In this document: piece after piece, positions 465 through 10,734 of the stretch
Layout: each line of letters opens with the position of its first letter
Position numbering within the stretch: position 1 is the first letter of the stretch
NCBI GenBank assembly: GCA_963758565.1
Contig: CAVWVX010000002.1
Span: 202,186-266,185 of the forward strand
Length of the DNA stretch: 64,000 bases
Source of the DNA: an uncultured Acidobacteriota bacterium
GTDB lineage: Bacteria > Acidobacteriota > Terriglobia > Terriglobales > Acidobacteriaceae
Direction of reading: 5' to 3'
Notes under the pieces: model-generated
What the model saw: the letters and a program-made list of their open reading frames with translations, nothing else
Database searches by the model: none
What the model was told of the DNA's origin: nothing
Program-made: the position numbers and the translations under genes

Positions 465-3400
465 ATGGAGAGACCAATGTCCGACCTCAAAACGCCCGAC
501 CTCAAAACGCCCGACCTCAAAACCACCACCGCCAATTCCCCTGCGGCCGCCCCCGTACACCCCGTCACCTCCGATAAAAAGAAGGCCCCCGGCCTCTCCT
601 TCCGCCGCTTCTTCACCAAACCCGGCGTCTCGCCCTACGACGAAGTGGAATGGGAACACCGCCTCGCCCAGATCACCGATGCCAAAGGCAACGTCATCTT
701 CGAACAGAAAGATGTCGAAGTCCCCAAAGATTGGTCCATGACCGCCACCAACATCGTGGCCTCGAAATACCTGCATGGAAAAATCGGTACCTCCGAGCGC
801 GAGACCGGCGTCCGCGCCCTCGTCACCCGCGTCGCCGAAACCATTCGCGATTGGGGATACGCTCAGGGATACTTCAAGACCGCCGAAGACAGCGCCACCT
901 TCCACGACGAACTCGTCCACATCCTCGTCCGCCAGTATGCCGCCTTCAACTCGCCCGTCTGGTTCAACGTGGGCTGCGATCGCATCGAGCCCAACTCTGA
1001 CGCCCGCAACTGGCACTGGAATCCCGCCACCCAGCAAGTTGAATTCGGCATCGCCGGCTACACCAAGCCGCAGTGCTCGGCGTGCTTTATCAACTCCGTA
1101 AAAGATTCGCTGGATTCCATCCTCACTCTGGCCAAGACCGAAGGCATGCTGTTCAAGTGGGGATCCGGCACCGGATCGAATCTCTCTCCGCTGCGCAGCT
1201 CCACCGAAGGCCTCAGCGGAGGAGGAACCGCCAGCGGCCCGCTCAGCTTCATGAAAGGCTTTGATGCCTTCGCCGGAGTCATCAAGTCCGGCGGCAAAAC
1301 CCGCCGCGCCGCCAAGATGGTCATTCTCAACGTCGACCATCCTGACATCATTGACTTCGTCGAGTGCAAACAAAAAGAAGAAGCCAAAGCTCACGCCCTG
1401 GTCGCGCAAGGCTACGACGGATCGCATCCCGATTCCGACGCCTACTCTTCCATCTTCTTCCAGAATGCCAACAACAGCGTCCGCGTCACCGACGACTTCA
1501 TGTACGCCGTCGTTCGCGACACCGATTTCTCTACCAAAAAAGTTCAGGACGGCAGCGTCATGAACACCTACAAAGCGAAAGAGTTGATGCGCAAGATTGC
1601 CGAAGCCACCTGGCACTGCGGCGATCCCGGCATGCAGTACGACACCACGACAAATCGCTGGCACACTTCGAAGAACACCGACCGCATCAACGCCTCGAAT
1701 CCGTGCAGCGAGTACATGTTCCTCGATGACTCCGCCTGCAACCTCGCCAGCCTGAACCTGCTGAAGTTCGCGCCCAACGGCACCTTCGACGTCGAAGCCT
1801 ATCGTCACGCCGTCGATGTCTTAATCACCGCGCAGGAAATCCTCGTCGACAACGCCGGCTACCCAACAGAGATGATCATGCGCAACTCGCATGACTACCG
1901 TCCGCTCGGCCTCGGCTACGCAAACCTCGGAGCGCTGTTGATGGCCGCGGGCCTGCCTTACGACTCCGACAGCGGCCGCGACTATGCCGCCTGCGTCACC
2001 GCTATCATGTGCGGTGAAGCCTATCTGCAATCCAGCAAGATCGCCGAACAATGCCAACCCCTCACTCCTGCAACTGAAACTATCTCCACCCGTCTCGGCG
2101 TCACCGATGCCGACCACATGCCCGGCGGAGCCTGCCCCGGCTGGTACATCAACCGCGAACCTTTCCTCGACGTAATCCGCATGCACCGCGCCTCCGTCAA
2201 CAACATCAACAAATCAAACGTCCCAAGTTCCCTCTACGAATCCAGCAAACAATGCTGGGACGAAGCCCTCGCCCACGGCGAAAAGCACGGCTACCGCAAC
2301 AGCCAAGTAACCGTCCTAGCCCCCACCGGAACCATCGGCTTCATGATGGACTGCGCGACTACCGGGGTGGAGCCGGATTTGGCGTTGGTGAAGTTTAAGA
2401 AGTTGGTCGGCGGAGGCATGATCAAAATCGTCAATCAGACGGTGCCGACGGCGTTGTTTAAGTTGGGGTATGACCACGATCAGACGAATGCGATTGTGAG
2501 TTACATCGATGCGACGGGGACGATTGAGGGGGCTCCGCATATTAAGGATGAAGATCTGGCGGTGTTTGATTGTTCGTTCAAGCCGGCGAAGGGGACTCGG
2601 TCGATTGCGTCCATGGGGCACTTGCGGATGATGGCCGCGGCGCAGCCATTTATCTCCGGGGCTATATCGAAGACGGTGAATCTTCCGGAGAATGCCTCCG
2701 TGGAAGACATCATGGAGGCTTATCTTCAGGCTTGGAAGCTGGGACTGAAGGCGGTTGCCGTGTATCGCGATGGATGCAAGAAGTCGCAGCCATTGTCGGC
2801 GGCGGGGACGAAGACGGCCAACTCTTCGAAGGATGACGCGCGAGTGGCGGTGGTGCGCGAAGAAGAAAATCTGAATGCGCCTCCGCGGGCGGTGCGGCAC
2901 AAGCTGCAGGAGGAGCGCGCGTCGATCACGCACAAGTTCAAGGTCGGCGATCACGAGGGCTACATCACCGTGGGTCTCTATCCCAATGGCGATCCTGGAG
3001 AGTTGTTCGTGACCATGGCCAAAGAAGGTTCGACGGTCAGCGGGTTGATGGACAGCTTTGCGCTGGCGGTTTCGATCGCGCTGCAACATGGCGTGCCGCT
3101 GAAACTGTTCTGCGAAAAGTTCGCGCACACGCGCTTCGAGCCCAGCGGCTGGAGCGGCAACGCCGACATCGGGTACGCCAAGTCGATCATGGACTACATC
3201 TTCCGCTGGCTGCAGTTGCGATTTCTGACTGGGCAGCAGGGGATGTTGTTCGAGAATCTCCGGCTGCGGTCGGGTCCCGAGTCCCGAGCCCTGAGTGCCG
3301 AGGGAATTGGCTCACAGGAATCGCTGGTGACTCGCGACTCGGGAATTCGAACTGGTTCGGTGCATGCCGCCGACAATCTGGCGGGAATCATCGACCTGAG

Positions 3401-3497
3401 CGACGCTCCGAGTTGCAGCTTCTGCGGCAGCATCATGACGCGGAATGGTTCGTGTTATCGCTGCGGGAGTTGCGGGAGCACCAGCGGGTGCTCGTAG
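465..3497 (+). CDS. nrdJ: Class II (adenosylcobalamin-dependent) ribonucleotide reductase
   Basis: 1010-aa ORF with blocks I recognise from B12-dependent RNRs: SACFINSV, NVDHPDIIDFV, ASNPCSEYMFLDDSACNLASLNL, VLAPTGTIGFMMDCATTGVEPD. It ends in a Cys-rich tail (CSFCG..CYRCGSCG). The N-terminus carries a PDLKT x3 repeat. An alternative ATG lies at 477. Confidence 0.93.
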   Translation: MERPMSDLKTPDLKTPDLKTTTANSPAAAPVHPVTSDKKKAPGLSFRRFFTKPGVSPYDEVEWEHRLAQITDAKGNVIFEQKDVEVPKDWSMTATNIVASKYLHGKIGTSERETGVRALVTRVAETIRDWGYAQGYFKTAEDSATFHDELVHILVRQYAAFNSPVWFNVGCDRIEPNSDARNWHWNPATQQVEFGIAGYTKPQCSACFINSVKDSLDSILTLAKTEGMLFKWGSGTGSNLSPLRSSTEGLSGGGTASGPLSFMKGFDAFAGVIKSGGKTRRAAKMVILNVDHPDIIDFVECKQKEEAKAHALVAQGYDGSHPDSDAYSSIFFQNANNSVRVTDDFMYAVVRDTDFSTKKVQDGSVMNTYKAKELMRKIAEATWHCGDPGMQYDTTTNRWHTSKNTDRINASNPCSEYMFLDDSACNLASLNLLKFAPNGTFDVEAYRHAVDVLITAQEILVDNAGYPTEMIMRNSHDYRPLGLGYANLGALLMAAGLPYDSDSGRDYAACVTAIMCGEAYLQSSKIAEQCQPLTPATETISTRLGVTDADHMPGGACPGWYINREPFLDVIRMHRASVNNINKSNVPSSLYESSKQCWDEALAHGEKHGYRNSQVTVLAPTGTIGFMMDCATTGVEPDLALVKFKKLVGGGMIKIVNQTVPTALFKLGYDHDQTNAIVSYIDATGTIEGAPHIKDEDLAVFDCSFKPAKGTRSIASMGHLRMMAAAQPFISGAISKTVNLPENASVEDIMEAYLQAWKLGLKAVAVYRDGCKKSQPLSAAGTKTANSSKDDARVAVVREEENLNAPPRAVRHKLQEERASITHKFKVGDHEGYITVGLYPNGDPGELFVTMAKEGSTVSGLMDSFALAVSIALQHGVPLKLFCEKFAHTRFEPSGWSGNADIGYAKSIMDYIFRWLQLRFLTGQQGMLFENLRLRSGPESRALSAEGIGSQESLVTRDSGIRTGSVHAADNLAGIIDLSDAPSCSFCGSIMTRNGSCYRCGSCGSTSGCS

Positions 3498-3571
3498 CCG
3501 GGTTGAAATGGCACGAAGGTGGTCTTGTAAGCGGCAAGCAGAGGTAATACAAAGTGTCTCGACTGTGAGGG

Positions 3572-3597
3572 GGCCACGGCAATGCCGTGGCCTTTTT
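3572..3597 (+). terminator. Rho-independent terminator downstream of nrdJ
   Basis: Perfect 9-bp stem ggccacggc / gccgtggcc with a 3-nt loop, followed by TTTTT. It lies 75 nt after the nrdJ stop. Confidence 0.8.
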
Positions 3598-3629
3598 CGC
3601 CGAGGGTTCATGGTTTGATGGGTCTTTGA

Positions 3630-4568
3630 ATGAAGCGCCATTACCGACTCCACGAGTTGGAGGACACCGAATTCGAGGACTTGGTGTGCAGGATCTGCAT
3701 GAGGATTCTGGGGATGGGTACGATTGCTTTCTCCTCCGGCAAGGATGGAGGAAGAGATGCTCGTTTCGATGGAACCGCCCAGCATTTTCCAAGTGACGCG
3801 AAGCCAGCGAAAGGCAAATTCGTTGTCCAAGCGAAGCACACATCGCAGCCAGGCGCCTCGTGTTCAGACAGCGCCTTCAAGAGGATTTTCCAGGACGAGT
3901 TACCGAAAATCAGGAAGCTTGCAAAGGCTGGGAACCTCGAACTGTATTTGCTGTTCACGAACCGTGATCTTACTGCGGGCATGGAAAGTTCAATGGTTAA
4001 GCGTCTAGGTAAGGTTAAGGGTCTCTCGGAGGCTTGGATACTCGGTAATGACTCAGTTCGTCAGCGGTTGGACATGCACCCGGACGTGTGGACAAGTATG
4101 CGGTTAGATCGTCATGAGGTGCCCTTTCGGATCTCGCCCGTTGAAATGGTCGAGGTCGTGACGGCGTTCCATGGCGCTGTCACGGACGGTGGCAGTTCCT
4201 TCAACAGTGCACTAAATTTCAATTTTGTTGGGAAGGATCGAAAGAACAGAATTAACCGCCTGTCGAGGCCCTACTATGAGTACATCCAGAGGGATTCACT
4301 ACCCCACTTTCGTCGGATTAAGACCTTCCTGGAAGACCCCCGCAATGACCGGCTTAAGGCTTTGTACCACGACACCGCAGACGAGTTGAAACAGAAAATC
4401 GTTACCTTCAGGGGGGATTTCAGCAGCTTCGACGAGGTTCTCACACACATCCGGGATCTTGTCGTCAGTCACGAGAGCAAACTCTTGGGAAAGAAACGCC
4501 TTGTGAGCCTGTTCCTTCATTACATGTATTGCAACTGCGACATCGGCGACCATGCTAAAGCCAACTAA
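3630..4568 (+). CDS. Mrr-cat-like PD-(D/E)xK restriction-endonuclease-fold effector with a helical C-terminal region (ABC-3C effector / LmuA-like)
   Basis: 312-aa ORF starting 33 nt after the nrdJ terminator. The N-terminal pattern FEDLV..GKDGGRDARF..KFVVQAKH matches the E-D-(Q)xK arrangement of Mrr-type nucleases. Its stop overlaps the next ORF by 17 nt. Confidence 0.7.
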   Translation: MKRHYRLHELEDTEFEDLVCRICMRILGMGTIAFSSGKDGGRDARFDGTAQHFPSDAKPAKGKFVVQAKHTSQPGASCSDSAFKRIFQDELPKIRKLAKAGNLELYLLFTNRDLTAGMESSMVKRLGKVKGLSEAWILGNDSVRQRLDMHPDVWTSMRLDRHEVPFRISPVEMVEVVTAFHGAVTDGGSSFNSALNFNFVGKDRKNRINRLSRPYYEYIQRDSLPHFRRIKTFLEDPRNDRLKALYHDTADELKQKIVTFRGDFSSFDEVLTHIRDLVVSHESKLLGKKRLVSLFLHYMYCNCDIGDHAKAN

Positions 4569-4806
4569 GCACTTGAATCCGGACAAGTCCGTGCTGCACA
4601 CAGCAGCGAGGATATTGCGGCTGCTCAGCAGGTATCGCATTCAGCCATATGACGAATTGTATGACCGCCTGCACAAACAGGCTGGCGATGACCTGCGGGA
4701 GGTTTTTCTCCCGGCCTTGGGTTTCCTGTTCCTCTTGGGAAAGATCGAATACTATGAGAAGACGGACAGCTTCGAGTTCGTAGGAGCGAACCGAGTGACC
4801 GTATGA
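4552..4806 (+). CDS. Small helical middle component of an ABC-3C / Lamassu-like system (LmuC-like)
   Basis: 84-aa ORF. Its ATG lies inside the 3' end of the effector gene, and its stop overlaps the ATPase start (ATGA at 4803-4806). Size, position and predicted helical character fit the middle component. No catalytic motif is visible. Confidence 0.6.
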   Translation: MLKPTKHLNPDKSVLHTAARILRLLSRYRIQPYDELYDRLHKQAGDDLREVFLPALGFLFLLGKIEYYEKTDSFEFVGANRVTV

Positions 4807-6611
4807 AGATCGCAAGAATCTATAGCAACCTAGCGACAGCCTTTCTGCCGATTAGATTGAACGGTATCGATGACGAAAAGTTGAGCGTTGTATTTGCGAG
4901 GATCACTCGCCCCAAGGACAACAGTCGAGACAGTCACAATCTGGGCAAGACCACCCTCATCCATCTTATCGACTTTCTGCTGCTGAGAGATGTGAGCGAC
5001 AAAACAAGTTTCCTTCTTAAGCACGTTGACCGCTTCCGGCAGTTCGTTTTCTACATCGAGCTGCAGTCGCATGCAGGGGGCTTTGTCACAGTTCGGCGAG
5101 CCGTCGAAGAGTCCACAAAAATCTCTCTAAAGCGACATGCGAAGCGTGATCAGGATCTGAGGGATGCGGGGGAGAAGGATTGGGACCATTTCGACGTCCC
5201 TATCGATACTGCGAGGCAGATCCTTGACTCTTATCTTGATTTGCAGGTTGTGAAGCCCTGGAACTATCGCAAGGGCGTGTCGTACTTCCTGCGAACGCAG
5301 GCTGACTATCAGGACTACTTCCAGATCTCAAAATTTCAAAAAGGTCAGGATTCGGAATGGAAGCCGTACCTCGCTCACTTGGTGGGACTCAACTTTGCCC
5401 TATTGGAGAACAAGTATGAATTGGACTCCCAGATAGAGGATCTCGAGAAGAGGAGGGGAGAACGGCAGGCCGAAATACAGATTGACGAGAAGGAGTTCAG
5501 CAAGCTCTCGGTGCAGCTAGACATCGATCGTGCAGAGGTCGCAAGGACGGCGGCCCTCCTCGACGACTTTGATTTCAGGGAGGAGGAGAAAAGGGTCAAC
5601 AAAGAGTTGATTGAGGGCGTGGAGCGTCGAATTTCCGAACTCAACAGCGAGATCTACAAGGTTGGCTATGACCTCGACGAAATGAGAAATTCGCTGGCGC
5701 AGGGGTTCAGCTTTCGAAGTGATTCCGTGCGGCAGATTTTCGAGGAGACCAAGACTTATGTGCCAGAAAACCTGCTCAGGGATTACGACGAACTCGTGGG
5801 GTTCAACCGTAAGCTCACGACAGAGCGGAACAGGTTGCTGAAGGGCCAGATTCGGGACTTGGAGGGGGAACTTGAAAAACTGAATGCGGAGGCTGCAGAG
5901 TTGAATCTCCGGCGGGTCCATTACTTAGAGCTTTTAAGAACTGCTGACGCGTTCAAGAAATTCAAAGCGCTCCAGCGTGAACACGCTGCACAGCGCGCAC
6001 AACTCACGTACCGTGAGACTCAAATGCACCGTTTGTCCCAGGTTAGGGAAATGACACGCGAGTTGCGAGGCCTTGAGATCAAGCGCAAGCAACTGGTTGA
6101 CGAGATCACGGACGAGACCGAGCGCGACAACCCAGTCAAGACAAGGATTGCTCTGGAGTTCCACTCACTTGTCCGGCGCGTGCTTGATCTGAACGGTTCC
6201 TTTTACGTGGCCATGAATCGGAGTGGGAATGTCGAGTTTGTGGTCGAGACTAAGCTTTCGGAGAAGAGTGCCGAGGTGTCGAGCCAATCCGAGGGCACCA
6301 GCTACAAGAAACTCCTTTGCGCGCTGTTCGACATCACCCTCCTCACGACCTACGCTACGCAACCGTTTTATCACTTTGTGTACCATGACGGGATATTTGA
6401 AGGACTCGACACGCGCAAGCGGCGCGTTCTGCTCCTGTTACTTAGGGAGATCGCGGGGAAGTACCGCATCCAATACATCCTTTCAACGATTGATTCCGAC
6501 CTGCCGCGCGATGAGGATGATAAAAAGATTGAGTTTCCTCAAGACGAAATCGTGCTTGAGTTGAGCGATCAGGGGACGAAGGGTCGCCTGTTCCGGATGG
6601 CAGAGTTTTGA
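4803..6611 (+). CDS. Coiled-coil-containing ABC/SMC-like ATPase (DUF2326/YydD-type; ABC-3C ATPase / LmuB-like)
   Basis: 602 aa. P-loop SRDSHNLGKTT (GKT codons at 4944-4952). A long E/K/R/L-rich heptad-like insertion spans roughly residues 195-420. The C-terminus has the signature-like SQSEGTSYKKL followed by the Walker B/D-loop-like FYHFVYHDGIFEGLD. Confidence 0.75.
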   Translation: MKIARIYSNLATAFLPIRLNGIDDEKLSVVFARITRPKDNSRDSHNLGKTTLIHLIDFLLLRDVSDKTSFLLKHVDRFRQFVFYIELQSHAGGFVTVRRAVEESTKISLKRHAKRDQDLRDAGEKDWDHFDVPIDTARQILDSYLDLQVVKPWNYRKGVSYFLRTQADYQDYFQISKFQKGQDSEWKPYLAHLVGLNFALLENKYELDSQIEDLEKRRGERQAEIQIDEKEFSKLSVQLDIDRAEVARTAALLDDFDFREEEKRVNKELIEGVERRISELNSEIYKVGYDLDEMRNSLAQGFSFRSDSVRQIFEETKTYVPENLLRDYDELVGFNRKLTTERNRLLKGQIRDLEGELEKLNAEAAELNLRRVHYLELLRTADAFKKFKALQREHAAQRAQLTYRETQMHRLSQVREMTRELRGLEIKRKQLVDEITDETERDNPVKTRIALEFHSLVRRVLDLNGSFYVAMNRSGNVEFVVETKLSEKSAEVSSQSEGTSYKKLLCALFDITLLTTYATQPFYHFVYHDGIFEGLDTRKRRVLLLLLREIAGKYRIQYILSTIDSDLPRDEDDKKIEFPQDEIVLELSDQGTKGRLFRMAEF

Positions 6612-6639
6612 TTTTTTCCCACGGTGCCGCCCCTGACGG

Positions 6640-7429
6640 GACTCGTTCCTTTTCTTGGTAGCTTTCGGCACGACTGAAGTCGTGCCCTTCCCGGTCGTGG
6701 CGGGGGCGAATTTCAAGAGGGATGGCGGCGGGGTGGCGCAGGCGAACAGCAGGTTCCTCGACTTCGCAAGATCATCCGCTTCGCGGATAATCCTGCTTCG
6801 CTCGGAATGACAAAATTGTTTGGGGGCTTGCGACGGGACTGAGGGCGTGCCCTTCCTGATCGTAGCGCTGCCAAAGTTCAAAACGTCCACGGGGGCTGAA
6901 GCCCGGCTAGCTTTTGGGGGGCTGGACGCGGCGCTGAAGCGCCGCTCTTCCACGGCGGTGCACGGGTTTGGGCGCGGATTGCGGCGGGACTGAGGGCGTG
7001 GCCTTCCTGGGCGTGGCGGTGGCGAATTCCTGGGGATGCGGCCGTGGAATCCCATGTTTCGCAAAGGACGCGAAACATGGGGCACCCGCGGTTCGTGGTG
7101 GCGTGGGAATTTTTCTTTCGCCCCTGCGGGGCTGGGTTATCGTCTCCTGCTTTTACCCACGGCGCGCGCCGTGGGCTGCATTCTTTCGCCGCTTCGCGGC
7201 TTGGTTCCATCTTAGGCGGCGTGCGGCCGATTTCGGCGCGCTTCGCTTGCTGAGGGCAGGCTCAAGAACTGAAGTTGTGCCCTTCGCGGTCGTGGCACTG
7301 CCGAATTCCTAGAAGGATGGGGCCGTGGAATCCCACGTTTCGCAAAGGACGCGAAACATATGGCACCCGCCGTTCGTGGTGGTTCCGGCGGACAGCAGAT
7401 TCCTCGCCGGGCTTTCAACTCCGTTCGGA
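6640..7429. repeat. Array of modular palindromic intergenic repeats (REP/MITE-like family)
   Basis: Hairpin ggcacgacTGAAgtcgtgcc at 6667-6686. Module 'cagcagRttcctc-[hairpin]-tcggaatgaYRa' at 6745-6814 and 7391-7436. A roughly 115-nt unit (..cgaattcct..ggccgtggaatcccaYgtttcgcaaaggacgcgaaacat..ggcacccgc.gttcgtggtgg) occurs at about 6985-7100 and about 7270-7385. Also gcggcgcTGAAgcgccgc and ggggcTGAAgccc hairpins. Confidence 0.85.
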
Positions 7430-8104
7430 ATGATGAAATTTTGTGAGGCTTACGACCCGGTGAGGAATGAGAGCGACTTTGAGCAAAGATATTCGAGGAA
7501 TCGGCCCTATCTGTATCACCTTACGGATCGGTCAAACCTCGATCACATACGAGAAACAAACAACATCTTGCCCGCAGCCAGATTGATGGAGCTTGCTGGA
7601 CGTGTCGATCTTCGTAGGGCCCGGAGACGCGAGCATGAACGGCTTATCATAGGACGGAAATCGATTTTGACTCGCGACCAAGCCCCTCTGCACCAGGGAA
7701 ATGTAGAGTTGATAAACGGGTTCAGCTTCGAGGACCTGGTTGAGAGCATCAATAGAAGAAGTTTTTTTTGGCCGGGGACCGCTGTCGGTCCAATCAGCTG
7801 TGGAGTGCGTCACTTCGAGCGGTATCAAGAGGAACGCCCTATTATTCTTCAGATTGCTTTTCAATCGTTGCTCGACGTGAATCGCGGTGTTGATCCACTT
7901 TATTGCAAGTACAATTCTGGTTCGCCGCGTTGCTCAAATGGAAATAAGAGTCCTCGTGGCCCCGATACCTTCCTGTCGTCAGGGCGTTTCAAGGGAACTC
8001 CAAGCCAGGTCGTCGAGGTGACCTTTGATGTCCCGATCATGCTGCCTGCTGATACGAAAGTTGGAGATCATTCGGCAGGGCCGTGGAGGCTGTTCCGTCG
8101 TTGA
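7430..8104 (+). CDS. Hypothetical protein, tentatively DarT/DUF4433- or DUF7002-like ADP-ribosyltransferase fold
   Basis: The track ORF 7325..8104 is trimmed to the ATG ATG at 7430/7433, because residues 1-35 are translated repeat DNA. Motifs YLYHLTDRSNLDHIRETNNILPA, LTRDQAPL, RRSFFWPG and VVEVTFDVP resemble the H..T..NL / FFW / E pattern I associate with DarT-like ART proteins. This is recognition from memory only. Confidence 0.4.
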   Translation: MMKFCEAYDPVRNESDFEQRYSRNRPYLYHLTDRSNLDHIRETNNILPAARLMELAGRVDLRRARRREHERLIIGRKSILTRDQAPLHQGNVELINGFSFEDLVESINRRSFFWPGTAVGPISCGVRHFERYQEERPIILQIAFQSLLDVNRGVDPLYCKYNSGSPRCSNGNKSPRGPDTFLSSGRFKGTPSQVVEVTFDVPIMLPADTKVGDHSAGPWRLFRR

Positions 8105-8111
8105 GTTGTAA

Positions 8112-8205
8112 TCGCAGCGCTTGATGCGCTGCGCCACTCAAAATCGAGGCGCTTGCGGCACGACTGAAGTCGTGCCCTTTCCGGTCGTGGCGCTACCGAC
8201 CCGCC
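8112..8205. repeat. Palindromic repeat modules (same family)
   Basis: gcagcgcTTGAtgcgctgcgccactcaaaatc, then ggcacgacTGAAgtcgtgcc (8157-8176) and ccggtcgtggcg. These match modules at 6667-6700 and 9810-9842. Confidence 0.8.
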
Positions 8206-8327
8206 CCCCCCGGGAATGGGCCCATGGCGGATCATTACATTTTGGCTTTTAAATTCCCAGTTACTCGGAGTATAGTTGTTGGCCTTCCTCCATCTCGGCC
8301 CCAAATACTTTGACTAAGGAGCTGACT

Positions 8328-9221
8328 ATGGCTGCTGCACCGGTTCCGGAACCGACCAATAAGAATGAAGATAGTTCTGTCTACGTTCTGTTCTACAAGT
8401 TGACTAAGGAGAGTCCGCCTTGGGTTCGCACTGTTGCGGTGCTTCTGATTGCGGGAGGGATCGCACTTGCCTTGTCGGGCAAGGTTTCCGATTGGTTCGG
8501 CAAAACAAAGAAAGCGGATATGCCGAGTGGAGCGGCACAGGTGCAGAATCCGATTTCCATACAGATTCAAAATGGGCCCTACCCAGTGCCGGCCGGAAGC
8601 AAGCAGATCAATGGGCCGGGCAATGCCAATAATGCACCGCAAAACCTGGACGCTACTCATCACTTCGATGAAGATGCGGAGCACTATAAATACCACCAGG
8701 ATCATCCAGAAGACAATCCCGACCTGACGCAGATAGCGAAATTTGATGACAAGAATGACATCAGTTTCAAGTTTTATGCGAAGACAGACAAATGCGTGTG
8801 GGTGCTGCGCCACGAGAATGGCGTGCCGGTTTCCCAATATGTGAAGGATCCAGCTTATCGGGATGGGGTTGCGCTGCCTCCGCATTCGGCCAGCGCTGGG
8901 AAGTTACCAAATTCTGACAGGCCTCCTGAACGGCCTAGTCTGTTCGATGCGCTTGTTCCTACGGCTGAGGCAGCGCAGGTTGAATTTCCGAAGGGGATGG
9001 ATGAGGCCCACCTCCACGAGGTCCAGGCAGGATGCGTCAATGGGCAGCACCCCGGCCCATTTAATTGGTGGTGGGGACCGCCGCAGGATCAGTGCTGGAG
9101 TCCGATGTTCCGGCAGTGGAGGGACGGTTGCACTCACTATCAAATGTTTAACCGTTGCGCGAATGCGTGGGACGGCCGTATTGTCTGGACTGCATGCACC
9201 CCCGGCCCGAATCACTTCTGA
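8328..9221 (+). CDS. Hypothetical single-pass membrane protein with a Cys/Trp-rich C-terminal domain
   Basis: Start moved to the ATG at 8328, which has AAGGAG 7 nt upstream. TM segment WVRTVAVLLIAGGIALALSG. C-terminus GCVNGQHPGPFNWWWGPPQDQCWSPMFRQWRDGCTHYQMFNRCANAWDGRIVWTAC. I recognise no family. Confidence 0.6.
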   Translation: MAAAPVPEPTNKNEDSSVYVLFYKLTKESPPWVRTVAVLLIAGGIALALSGKVSDWFGKTKKADMPSGAAQVQNPISIQIQNGPYPVPAGSKQINGPGNANNAPQNLDATHHFDEDAEHYKYHQDHPEDNPDLTQIAKFDDKNDISFKFYAKTDKCVWVLRHENGVPVSQYVKDPAYRDGVALPPHSASAGKLPNSDRPPERPSLFDALVPTAEAAQVEFPKGMDEAHLHEVQAGCVNGQHPGPFNWWWGPPQDQCWSPMFRQWRDGCTHYQMFNRCANAWDGRIVWTACTPGPNHF

Positions 9222-9239: not shown

Positions 9240-9870
9240 TGGCGCTCTGCACGGTCCGCATTTCCTTGGGTTCGCGCCGCGCTTCGCTTGGTCAGGGCAG
9301 GCTCAAGAGCTGAAGTCGTGGTCTTTCCGGTCGCGGCGTTGGCGAATTCCTGGAGGGATGGAGGCATGGAATTCCCGGTCGTGGAGGCGTCGGCGAAAAG
9401 CAGATTCCTCACCGGCAAAGGACGCCGGTTCGGAATGACAAGGATTTTGGCTGGTTTGAGCTCTCTGTGGCGTCCCTACGGGCCTCGGTTCTATTTCGTG
9501 CGAGCTTACCCAGGATTTACGTCCCTTCGGCAAGCTCAGGGCAGGCTCTGGGCTATCATCTGGCGCCCCTCCGGGGCTTGGGTGTGGTGACGTCGGCTTA
9601 TTCTTCTTCTTCTTCTTCTTCTAACCGCCTTGTGGCTCCTCATTGAGGCTTACGGCAAGCTCGAAATCGTGCTCTTCGGGCGCGTCCGCTGACGAATTCC
9701 TGGAGGCCTGCGGTCATGGTTAGCGTCGGCGAAAAGCAGATTCCTCACCGGCAAGGACGCCGGTTCGGAATGACAAAGAATTTTGGAGGGTTTGAGCGGT
9801 TCGCTGATCGCAGTGCTGAAGCGCTGCGCCACCCAAAATCTCATTCTCTGTAATTCCGAGTTTTCCACAG
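9240..9870. repeat. Second array of modular palindromic repeats
   Basis: Module 'aaaagcagattcctcaccggcaaRggacgccggttcggaatgacaaRg' at 9395-9443 and 9727-9777. '..gaattcctggagg..' units at about 9340-9360 and about 9695-9712. gctcagggcaggctc units. gtgcTGAAgcgctgcgccacccaaaatc at about 9812-9842. Confidence 0.8.
9601..9622. repeat. (TTC)7 microsatellite
   Basis: ttcttcttcttcttcttcttct read directly from the sequence. Confidence 0.95.
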
Positions 9871-9998: not shown

Positions 9999-10118
9999 CT
10001 CGTAACATCTGGTCTGTGGGACACGCAGGGGTCCTTCGGCGGGCGAAAGGACGTCGCCTCAGGATGAAAAATCTATTTGGTATCGACAAATTGGTATCGA
10101 CGACGGGGAGGAGATTTT

Positions 10119-10734
10119 ATGTGGAGGAAGAAGGATCGGTTGGCGGGTGGGAGGTTGGAGGGGTGCAAGGAGCGGGGGGAGTGGGCGGAGTTGTATTTCA
10201 TGATGCAGGCGGCGGGGAGGGGGTTGAAGGTGTCGCGTCCGTTTGGGCAGGCGGGGAGATATGACGTGGGGGTGGAGAGTTCGGTGGAGGGGGCGGCGGC
10301 GGTCAGGGAGAGTGGGGAGGGGGATGAGTTTGCGATTCCGAGGCGAGCGGCGACGGTGTTGCGGGTGCAGGTGAAGTCGACGATCTACAAGCGGCGGAAT
10401 GAGGAGTACAGCTTGAATGTGATGGGGCCGCAGAGGAAGAAGTATGTTCCGGGGACGGTGGATTTTTTTTGCGATTCTGGTGATACCGATCGATGCGTGG
10501 TACATCATCCCGTTTGATGTGCTGGGGAGGACGAATTCGTCGATTCATTTTACGCCGGCGGCGGTGCGGCAGAAGTATGGGAGGTATCTGGAGGCTTGGG
10601 ATTTGCTGAAGCAGAGCGGGATCACGATTGAGGCTTGTGTGGATGAGGAGTGGGAGGAAGGAGTGGAGGAGGAGGTGGTGATTGAGGTGTTATCGGCCGA
10701 TGGGGACGGTGCGGGGATTGAGGATTTGAGGTAG
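10119..10734 (+). pseudogene. PD-(D/E)XK endonuclease (group-I-intron-associated PDDEXK_5-like family) disrupted by a 1-nt frameshift in a T8 run
   Basis: ORF 10077..10517 reads ..GEWAELYFMMQAAGRGLKVSRPFGQAGRYDVGVE..LRVQVKST..VDFF. ORF 10444..10734 reads FFAILVIPIDAWYIIPFDVL.. These are two frames of one gene. Removing one T from T8 (10463-10470) joins VDFF to AILVIPIDAWYIIP. Confidence 0.65.

Follow-up and report, generated by a model that had tools for sequence, protein, structure and literature searches.

A compact ABC three-component (Lamassu-like) cassette of the DUF2326/YydD branch in an uncultured acidobacterium

Gene content of the locus

The DNA analysed here, hereafter referred to as the window, is a stretch of 64,000 nt (positions 202,186 to 266,185 of the forward strand of contig CAVWVX010000002.1, assembly GCA_963758565.1) from an uncultured bacterium of the family Acidobacteriaceae. 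Close to its beginning lies an intact and sharply delimited cassette of 2,983 bp with three open reading frames (ORFs), all on the forward strand, which are predicted to encode a nuclease effector, a small adaptor and an ATPase in that order (Table 1). An initial annotation, made from the sequence alone, had read these genes as an ATP-binding cassette (ABC) three-component system (ABC-3C) or Lamassu-like system with an Mrr-type nuclease effector, and this overall reading is supported by Pfam profile matches, structural models and the conservation of the gene order. There is a 17-nt overlap between ORF1 and ORF2, and an ATGA at positions 4803-4806 joins ORF2 to ORF3. Both overlaps, the coordinates and the lengths of the three products (312, 84 and 602 aa) had been reported exactly in that annotation, the motifs it quoted for ORF1 and ORF3 are present and conserved in the family alignments, and the residue numbering of the mutants it proposed (K49 in ORF3; D43 and K69 in ORF1) is correct.

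Selection on the three genes was analysed against one relative, using a gapless alignment of the operon at 76.9% DNA identity. The ratio of non-synonymous to synonymous substitution rates (dN/dS) was 0.073 for ORF2 and 0.058 for ORF3, and in ORF1 the proportion of non-synonymous differences (pN) was 0.094 against a saturated synonymous proportion (pS) of 0.78. As an off-frame control, ORF3 was also read out of frame, which gave ratios above 1. Purifying selection acts on each of the three, and ORF1, ORF2 and ORF3 are real genes rather than chance reading frames.

Table 1. Positions of the cassette genes, of their domains and motifs, and of other features in the window
Feature	Position	Strand	Basis
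ORF1, effector (LmuA-like), 312 aa	3630..4568	+	Mrr-type PD-(D/E)xK domain and CTD12
ORF1 residues ~1-157, putative restriction-endonuclease-like catalytic domain	3630..4100	+	Conserved residues, model
ORF1 residues 162-306, all-helical CTD12 domain	4113..4547	+	Pfam CTD12, positions 1-144 of 144
ORF2, 84 aa, ABC-3C middle component (LmuC-like adaptor)	4552..4806	+	Pfam MC8
ORF3, 602 aa, SMC/Rad50-like ABC ATPase, DUF2326/YydD family (short-LmuB-like sensor)	4803..6611	+	Pfam, PADLOC, model
ORF3 Walker A/P-loop, S44-H-N-L-G-K49-T-T51	4932..4955	+	Family conservation
ORF3 antiparallel coiled-coil hairpin, residues ~198-461	5394..6185	+	DSSP on model
ORF3 C-terminal head motifs: S494-Q-S-E-G498-T-S-Y501, H524-F-V-Y-H-D529, G530, E533, G-L-D536	6282..6410	+	Conservation
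GC-rich hairpin and T-run, terminator of the upstream class II ribonucleotide reductase gene, outside the system	3571..3597	+	Folding
DUF7002 protein gene	7325-8104 (likely start 7460)	+	Pfam, 7.9e-23
303-aa protein gene	8310-9221	+	No Pfam or PADLOC match
Apparent truncated PD-(D/E)xK endonuclease remnant, 146 aa, beside the MoaA gene	10077-10517	+	Pfam PDDEXK_5
Acido-Lenti-1 small RNA motif (Rfam RF01687)	7156-7201 and 9535-9578	+	47 and 37.2 bits; gathering score 37

The effector

In ORF1, a putative nuclease domain is followed by a helical domain that matches the whole of the Pfam C-terminal domain (CTD) family CTD12 at 1.5e-31 (110.2 bits, cut-off 25). With ORF1 alone as the query, the Mrr_cat profile (PF04471) falls just short of its 21-bit threshold, at 19.9 bits (E 8e-4), and among the family members searched Mrr_cat is matched by 26 of 32 at E <= 0.01 (best 2.9e-7) and CTD12 by 32 of 32. 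The putative catalytic residues are E16 in the motif region FEDLV, D39 and D43 in GKDGGRD (nt 3744-3758), and Q67-x-K69 in VVQAKH (nt 3828-3836). An alignment-based census of 57 homologs, drawn from distant loci among the 80 described below, found D39 and D43 in every homolog and E16, Q67 and K69 each in 56. The AlphaFold2 model of ORF1, with a predicted local distance difference test score (pLDDT) of 84.4, has an alpha-beta-beta-beta-alpha-beta nuclease core and then an all-helical C-terminal domain, with the secondary structure elements ordered as helix 12-26, strand 42-49, strand 61-69, helix 81-99 and strand 105-110. The PD-(D/E)xK constellation is present on the expected core, with an acidic residue in helix 1, an aspartate in strand 2 and an (E/Q)xK motif in strand 3. 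Foldseek searches with this model returned YydB, LmuA, the N-terminal nuclease of Avs4, SfsA, EcoT38I and MUS81, all of them weak matches that are nonetheless coherent, and PADLOC indicated that the N-terminal module is common to its PDC-S73 and Aga restriction endonuclease (REase)/TIR models. The initial proposal that an Mrr-cat-like PD-(D/E)xK pattern is fused to a long helical region is supported by the family-wide profile matches and the model. CTD12 ends in a conserved FLHYMYxxCDIG motif in which H297, Y300, C303, D304 and G306 are near-invariant, and by analogy with solved Lamassu complexes it would act as a docking and oligomerisation module.

The domain N-terminal to CTD12 differs between relatives, being an REase in most loci, an HNH domain in four (L031, L040, L046 and L047) and absent in one (L067). 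Such modularity of the effector is, according to the literature, a signature of ABC-3C and Lamassu systems. Proteins consisting of CTD12 without an effector domain were observed at L067:5178-5747 (189 aa) and at L089 (NZ_CP132066.1, locus 3230-3781; 183 aa), in both cases paired with an intact DUF2326 ATPase, in a manner reminiscent of the effector-less clade O of short Lamassu systems (Haudiquet et al.).

The middle component

ORF2 matches three Pfam middle-component (MC) families above their cut-offs, namely MC8 (4e-13, 49.7 bits, cut-off 25), MC6 (1.6e-10, 41.3 bits, cut-off 27.2) and MC7 (1.5e-6, 28.6 bits, cut-off 27), and its residues Y67 and D72 are invariant. A small gene between the effector and ATPase genes was found by tblastn in at least 70 of the 80 loci, and in several more by inspection of ORFs. 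The matches to MC8 and MC6 and the conserved position bear out the earlier suggestion that this small ORF encodes the middle protein of the system.

The ATPase

ORF3 belongs to the DUF2326/YydD kind of ATPases related to structural maintenance of chromosomes (SMC) proteins, as had been proposed from its motifs. It matches Pfam DUF2326 at 7.5e-25 (87.7 bits, cut-off 28.7) and, across its full length, PADLOC model PDC-M68B at 4.9e-55, and NCBIfam returned weak Rad50 and TrlF matches. The AlphaFold2 model (pLDDT 85.5; predicted template modelling score 0.70) consists of a split ABC head and an antiparallel coiled-coil hairpin. Its best match among Protein Data Bank (PDB) structures is Bacillus subtilis YydD in the YydD-YydB integrative model 9a6c (1.9e-19), followed by the LmuB chains 9uxh_F (7e-12), 9hqu_A (6.6e-10), 9hqx_B (1e-9) and 9ux7_A (2.6e-7), and further down by the heads of SMC, Rad50, Smc5/6, JetC and SbcC. 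The helical insertion anticipated in the initial annotation is present, but its size of roughly 220 aa was an underestimate, since in the model it extends over about 264 aa (residues 198-461), with helices assigned by DSSP at 198-299 and 322-461.

Motif conservation was counted from an alignment of 74 full-length homologs. The P-loop segment H-N-L-G-K49 is kept in 73 of these and is invariant in the ORF3 family alignment A1, with the first glycine of the usual GxxxxGK[ST] replaced by Asp/Ser. The other conserved positions are Q166, G498, D529-G530, D536 and Q557 (72 homologs each) and Y501 and E533 (70 each). These include residues of the signature-like SEGTS within 494-500 and of FVYHDG..EGLD at 524-536, a stretch that holds the Walker B segment H524-F-V-Y-H-D529 and the D-loop G-L-D536. 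The Walker B aspartate is followed by an invariant glycine (hhhhD-G), without a catalytic glutamate or glutamine, and there is no obvious H-loop histidine in ORF3. Together these features suggest a slow ATPase that would act as a nucleotide-dependent switch, and the D-G sequence itself suggests that hydrolysis may be slow or may not occur at all. This is put forward only as a suggestion, because LmuB proteins with a 'naturally deviant' Walker B still hydrolyse ATP at a moderate rate according to the cryo-electron microscopy (cryo-EM) literature. The chemistry of ORF3 may nevertheless differ from that of short LmuB proteins on account of the D-G Walker B.

The translation of ORF3 contains a single cysteine (C506), and there is therefore no CxxC zinc hook. 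At the apex of the coiled coil lies the motif YxxLVxFNxxLTxERN (residues 328-343, window 5784-5831), in which Y328, L331, F334 and R342 are invariant. Because the zinc hook is absent, this motif could be an alternative means of dimerisation or an elbow, in a region where the confidence of the model is low (pLDDT 53-65).

Conservation as a unit and distribution of the family

A scan of one genome per species yielded 164 confirmed relatives, from which 80 loci were retained. These loci come from Alphaproteobacteria, Acidobacteriota, Bacteroidota, Planctomycetota, Chloroflexota, Bdellovibrionota, the Candidate Phyla Radiation, Mycobacterium, Haemophilus and a Thermoplasmatales archaeon. In 77 of the 80, an ORF1 homolog is encoded just upstream of the ATPase gene, so that, with the middle gene described above, the order effector, small protein, ATPase given in the initial annotation is conserved. 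All measurable junctions between ORF2 and ORF3 range from a 14-nt overlap to a 10-nt gap, with a 4-nt overlap in 38 of 77, and ORF1 and ORF2 overlap in most loci. The divergence of ORF1 co-varies with that of ORF3 (r = 0.83, Spearman 0.76, p = 2e-12). The three genes are a co-evolving unit. At E <= 1e-30 the family comprises 317 clusters (50% identity) among 1.84 billion representative sequences, rising to 1,141 at E <= 1e-3.

A gene for an XRE-type helix-turn-helix (HTH) protein was considered as a possible fourth core gene and rejected, being upstream in 5 of 73 loci and absent from the window. In those few loci it directly adjoins the effector gene on its upstream side (for example L081:4497-4820, with a 4-nt overlap; L082:4462-4782; L050:4376-4792), and on a Citrobacter plasmid a RelE/ParE toxin gene comes before it. 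The HTH protein could serve the cassette as an optional transcriptional regulator.

Genomic context and mobility

The operon has a GC content of 0.51-0.53 against 0.58-0.62 in its flanks. Similarity to the relatives that are 83% identical covers exactly positions 3629-6611, with 2,983 nt aligned gaplessly and nothing beyond, and in those relatives the cassette lies between a Peptidase_M49 gene and an arginine operon, whereas here it lies between the genes for NrdJ and MoaA. A further relative has its ATPase gene among insertion sequence (IS) elements, with the upstream partners degraded. The closest protein relatives are labelled Terriglobales. The lower GC, the ending of similarity at the ends of the operon and the differing flanks indicate that the cassette was acquired horizontally. 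A defence-island context for the window was considered and rejected, given its housekeeping neighbours.

This pattern bears on the possibility that the three genes encode a housekeeping SMC/Rad50-like complex for repair or chromosome maintenance, similar to SbcCD or RecN, or that they are a decaying, non-functional remnant. The fold of ORF3, which also matches the heads of Rad50, SbcC and SMC, its weak NCBIfam matches and the housekeeping genes around the cassette are compatible with the former, and frameshifted copies found elsewhere (L008, L014, L042, L050 and L083) with the latter. However, a housekeeping role is contradicted by the patchy distribution of the family, which a DNA search using the Citrobacter plasmid ortholog as a bridge detected in 8 of 5,426 complete Escherichia coli genomes, and by flanks that are not conserved even between copies 83% identical. 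It is also difficult to reconcile with a GC content below that of the flanks, carriage on plasmids, a swappable effector and the absence of an Mre11/SbcD-type partner, and a remnant would not be expected to be intact, with all motifs kept and a dN/dS of about 0.06. Both versions of this explanation are considered extremely unlikely.

Carriage on mobile elements is common in the family. The ATPase was found on 36 plasmids, of which 25 are conjugative and 20 come from Agrobacterium, with further examples on a Citrobacter IncC plasmid and a Burkholderia plasmid, and the plasmid copies lie in integrase-linked cassettes. Annotations on plasmids by the Prokaryotic Genome Annotation Pipeline (PGAP) name the three products 'ABC-three component system protein / ABC-three component system middle component 8 / DUF2326 domain-containing protein'. 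Defence genes adjoin some relatives, namely those for RelE/ParE and, in remoter relatives, for a type ISP restriction-modification enzyme, a CHAT protein and a TrlF ATPase. This association with plasmids, and the integrases, RelE/ParE toxins and IS elements that adjoin some copies, would also be explained if the cassette were an addiction or stabilisation module of the mobile elements that carry it, or a weapon in competition between such elements, with immunity of the host as a secondary effect. Such a role is improbable, as the cassette is chromosomal here and in its close relatives, with no integrase or mobile-element genes adjacent, and as no antitoxin-like labile partner is present, three co-evolving components with an ATPase sensor being atypical of addiction modules. 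Moreover, the ATPase was detected in none of 50,697 phage records.

Relationship to ABC-3C, Lamassu and other known systems

The ABC-3C architecture was reportedly predicted by Krishnan and colleagues in 2020. All of its elements as defined there and in Pfam were found at this locus, namely a DUF2326 ATPase with a coiled coil, a small middle component and a variable effector joined to a CTD. The swappable N-terminal effector on a constant CTD is shared as well, and nothing substantive differs. The locus is a definite member of ABC-3C.

In reviews and in the primary literature, ABC-3C is counted within the Lamassu superfamily, which has been divided into short types with an LmuB of about 600 aa and long types with one of about 800 aa (Haudiquet et al., PMC12663957). 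The same study lists Mrr and HNH domains among Lamassu effectors, Mrr being an effector of short and long types alike, and notes a clade without an effector domain (PMC12663957). The short ATPase of about 600 aa, the Mrr and HNH effectors and the effector-less members are all reproduced within the DUF2326 branch. By fold and architecture, ORF3 is an LmuB-like ATPase of about 600 aa, with structural matches to LmuB, an invariant GK[ST] in the P-loop and a deviant Walker B. The three-gene order is the same as in the short type II systems, namely DdmABC of Vibrio cholerae, LmuACB of Salmonella enterica and Lamassu-Mrr of E. coli SE15, and their effectors likewise combine an N-terminal nuclease with a helical CTD. 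The LmuB of V. cholerae also resembles ORF3 in having no zinc hook. There are, however, clear differences. The V. cholerae LmuA (VcLmuA) carries CTD7 and its LmuC (VcLmuC) is an MC3 protein, whereas CTD12 and MC8 are found here; the short Lamassu Walker B reads D-[Q/S/T/E], in contrast to D-G in ORF3; the effector is an Mrr-type REase rather than Cap4; and E. coli SE15 has no close DNA-level copy of the DUF2326/CTD12/MC8 branch. The LmuA of Bacillus cellulasensis (BcLmuA) has been reported to carry CTD12, which profile searches of PDB chains did not independently confirm.

Another similar system is the PADLOC phage-defence candidate PDC-M68, in which component A is an HNH-CTD effector and component B a DUF2326 ATPase (for example on the Sinorhizobium plasmid pSinA). 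It shares the architecture of the cassette, a small MC gene separating A from B, but the effector is HNH and the adaptor MC6, in place of the REase with a diverged CTD and the MC8 adaptor found here. The ATPases of pSinA and Phaeobacter are 23-25% identical to ORF3, are near-seed members of PDC-M68B (2.4e-224 and 6.7e-167) and match the PADLOC LmuB model at about 1e-11, and the Phaeobacter effector matches LmuA at 2.7e-4. The LmuA and LmuB models of PADLOC v2.0.0 do, then, fire on remoter relatives of the cassette. These matches form a transitive bridge at the sequence level from ORF3 through PDC-M68B to LmuB, and on the strength of this bridge together with fold and architecture the locus is filed in the Lamassu superfamily. 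Its membership there is by fold, architecture and transitive homology, as a diverged branch that the defence annotation of 2023 (PADLOC) labels as a candidate only.

The best structural match of ORF3, and also of ORF1 (there a weak one), is the B. subtilis pair YydB-YydD (PDB 9a6c), an integrative model from cross-linking mass spectrometry and deep learning in which the ATPase is modelled in complex with an effector-like partner. Homologs of ORF3 are named 'YydD (DUF2326 family)' by JGI. Sequence identity between YydB/YydD and the proteins of the locus is only 11-14%, and YydB is a protein of 481 aa whose non-CTD part is unlike the REase of ORF1. B. subtilis 168 appears to carry a cousin of this branch. 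No functional study of YydB/YydD and no published validation of PDC-M68 were found in the searchable literature.

Proposed function and mechanism

Taken as a whole, the locus is probably a self-contained, horizontally acquired anti-phage or anti-plasmid ABC-3C (Lamassu) cassette of the 'short' DUF2326/YydD branch with a Lamassu-like mechanism. The analyses presented above show what its parts are, that these co-evolve as a conserved unit and that they are mobile, and the mechanism would follow by analogy with solved Lamassu complexes. Cryo-EM of the systems of V. cholerae, Salmonella and B. cellulasensis has described an LmuA1B2C1 apo complex, sequestration of the effector by LmuB2-LmuC, sensing of DNA ends and activation through tetramerisation of LmuA. 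In the equivalent arrangement here, two copies of ORF3 and one of ORF2 would hold a single ORF1 monomer by its CTD12, keeping the Mrr-type nuclease inactive. On binding DNA, the heads of ORF3 would detect the free ends or replication intermediates that an invading phage or plasmid produces, with the ATP state modulating this sensing. ORF1 would then be released and would oligomerise through CTD12, bringing its PD-(D/E)xK domains into a competent active site, and the resulting non-specific cleavage of DNA would lead to abortive infection or to elimination of the plasmid.

Several observations weigh against this interpretation. The cassette is solitary in the 64-kb window, where the other genes are housekeeping genes, and it does not lie in a defence island. 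A scan for promoters and terminators gave no more matches than expected from shuffled sequence, and no promoter was recognisable. The best Foldseek E-value of ORF1 is a weak 1.6e-3 (to YydB), and the D-G of the ORF3 Walker B falls outside the hhhhD[Q/S/T/E] published for short LmuB. With PADLOC v2.0.0, neither a match of ORF3 to LmuB nor one of ORF1 to LmuA or PDC-M68A was obtained, ORF2 matched none of the Lmu models and ORF3 matched only PDC-M68B. Searches of all PDB chains by phmmer with ORF3 and ORF1, and with the family profiles A1, A2 and A3, gave no sequence reach to the solved LmuA, LmuB or LmuC proteins, returning coiled-coil or chance matches only, and for this reason the transfer of mechanism rests on fold and architecture. 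Lastly, no phage-defence experiment on the DUF2326/CTD12/MC8 branch was found in the searchable literature.

The nature of the effector raises the question of whether the cassette might instead act by direct, non-abortive restriction or plasmid elimination, with an ATPase-licensed Mrr-type domain cutting foreign DNA, such as modified DNA or small multicopy replicons, while the host is spared. Modification-dependent type IV enzymes use Mrr_cat, the domain matched by most members of the ORF1 family, for catalysis. Elimination of plasmids as well as defence against phage is known for the related DdmABC system, and large conjugative plasmids, on which rivalry with other replicons would matter, often carry the cassette. 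On the other hand, searches with Pfam and inspection of the model detected only the nuclease domain and CTD12 in ORF1, with no recognisable reader domain for DNA modification. Validated Lamassu systems, the one with an Mrr-type effector included, also show abortive infection and non-specific DNA cleavage. The Mrr-effector Lamassu of E. coli O150:H5 SE15 has been validated with ATPase and effector mutants and with a deletion of lmuC, and has an abortive-infection phenotype (Millman et al., 10.1101/2022.05.11.491447). Direct restriction is accordingly regarded as unlikely, while retaining some credibility.

A further question is whether the DUF2326/YydD branch is simply a diverged copy of known Lamassu systems or a mechanistically distinct offshoot. 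The latter reading arises from the D-G Walker B, the lack of an obvious H-loop histidine, the apex motif in place of a zinc hook and the want of sequence reach to LmuA, LmuB and LmuC. In such an offshoot, ORF3 could be a switch that only binds ATP, or its cue could be something other than DNA ends, and the Mrr-type nuclease might be licensed for selective, possibly modification-dependent, non-abortive cleavage. This reading is judged quite doubtful, and a Lamassu-like sequestration-and-release cassette remains the preferred interpretation.

Of the checks proposed in the initial annotation, the Pfam search placed CTD12, MC8/MC6 and DUF2326 above their cut-offs, with Mrr_cat alone short of its own on the single ORF1 query, and the single-chain structure predictions of ORF1 and ORF3 showed similarity to nuclease (weak) and ABC/SMC folds, respectively. 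The PADLOC search identified ORF3 through PDC-M68B but made no LmuA or LmuB call. The statement that this REase variant was uncharacterised was only partly right, because the Mrr-type Lamassu of E. coli SE15 has been validated; for the DUF2326/CTD12/MC8 branch, the searchable literature yielded no experiment. Similarly, what triggers the system and what the middle component does, both described as open in that annotation, are partly answered at the level of the superfamily, where cryo-EM shows sensing of DNA ends, sequestration of the effector by LmuB2-LmuC and activation by LmuA tetramerisation.

Other features of the window

The terminator of the NrdJ gene (dG -29.7 kcal/mol, z = -4.05), spotted by eye and confirmed by folding, ends about 30 nt before ORF1. 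Downstream of the cassette, the DUF7002 gene and the adjacent gene for a 303-aa protein share its stretch of lower GC and are absent from the loci of its relatives, and neither of these two ORFs gave a match to defence genes. They may have arrived with or beside the cassette. In the apparent endonuclease remnant, residues 31-67 match positions 4-40 of the 138 in PDDEXK_5 (4.5e-7).

The intergenic stretches downstream of the cassette are rich in repeats, and both Acido-Lenti-1 matches lie within them, which fits an acidobacterial host. A dispersed GC-rich repeat family with the core GACTGAAGTCGTGCCCTTCCCGGTCGTGGC occupies window positions 6639-7382, 8145-8206, 9275-9415 and 9687-9792, in units of about 60-100 nt and at least six copies, including a 68-nt pair that is 93% identical (7034-7101 and 7315-7382). 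At up to three mismatches, the core occurs only at 6.6-8.2 kb of the 64-kb window, with a chance expectation of 0. The repeat resembles an element of the REP (repetitive extragenic palindromic) or MITE (miniature inverted-repeat transposable element) kind lying between low-GC genes, and is the source of many spurious overlapping ORFs in that part of the window.

Implications

The DUF2326/CTD12/MC8 system is common in nature and already has names in PGAP, and its description here adds little conceptually. The modest value of the locus lies in being a compact, complete example of the DUF2326/YydD branch whose ends are well defined. In this branch it can be tested whether sequestration and release operate in the most diverged of the short Lamassu ATPases, and whether an ATPase with a D-G Walker B hydrolyses ATP. 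The branch would also be informative on how oligomerisation activates an Mrr-type PD-(D/E)xK domain, as opposed to Cap4.

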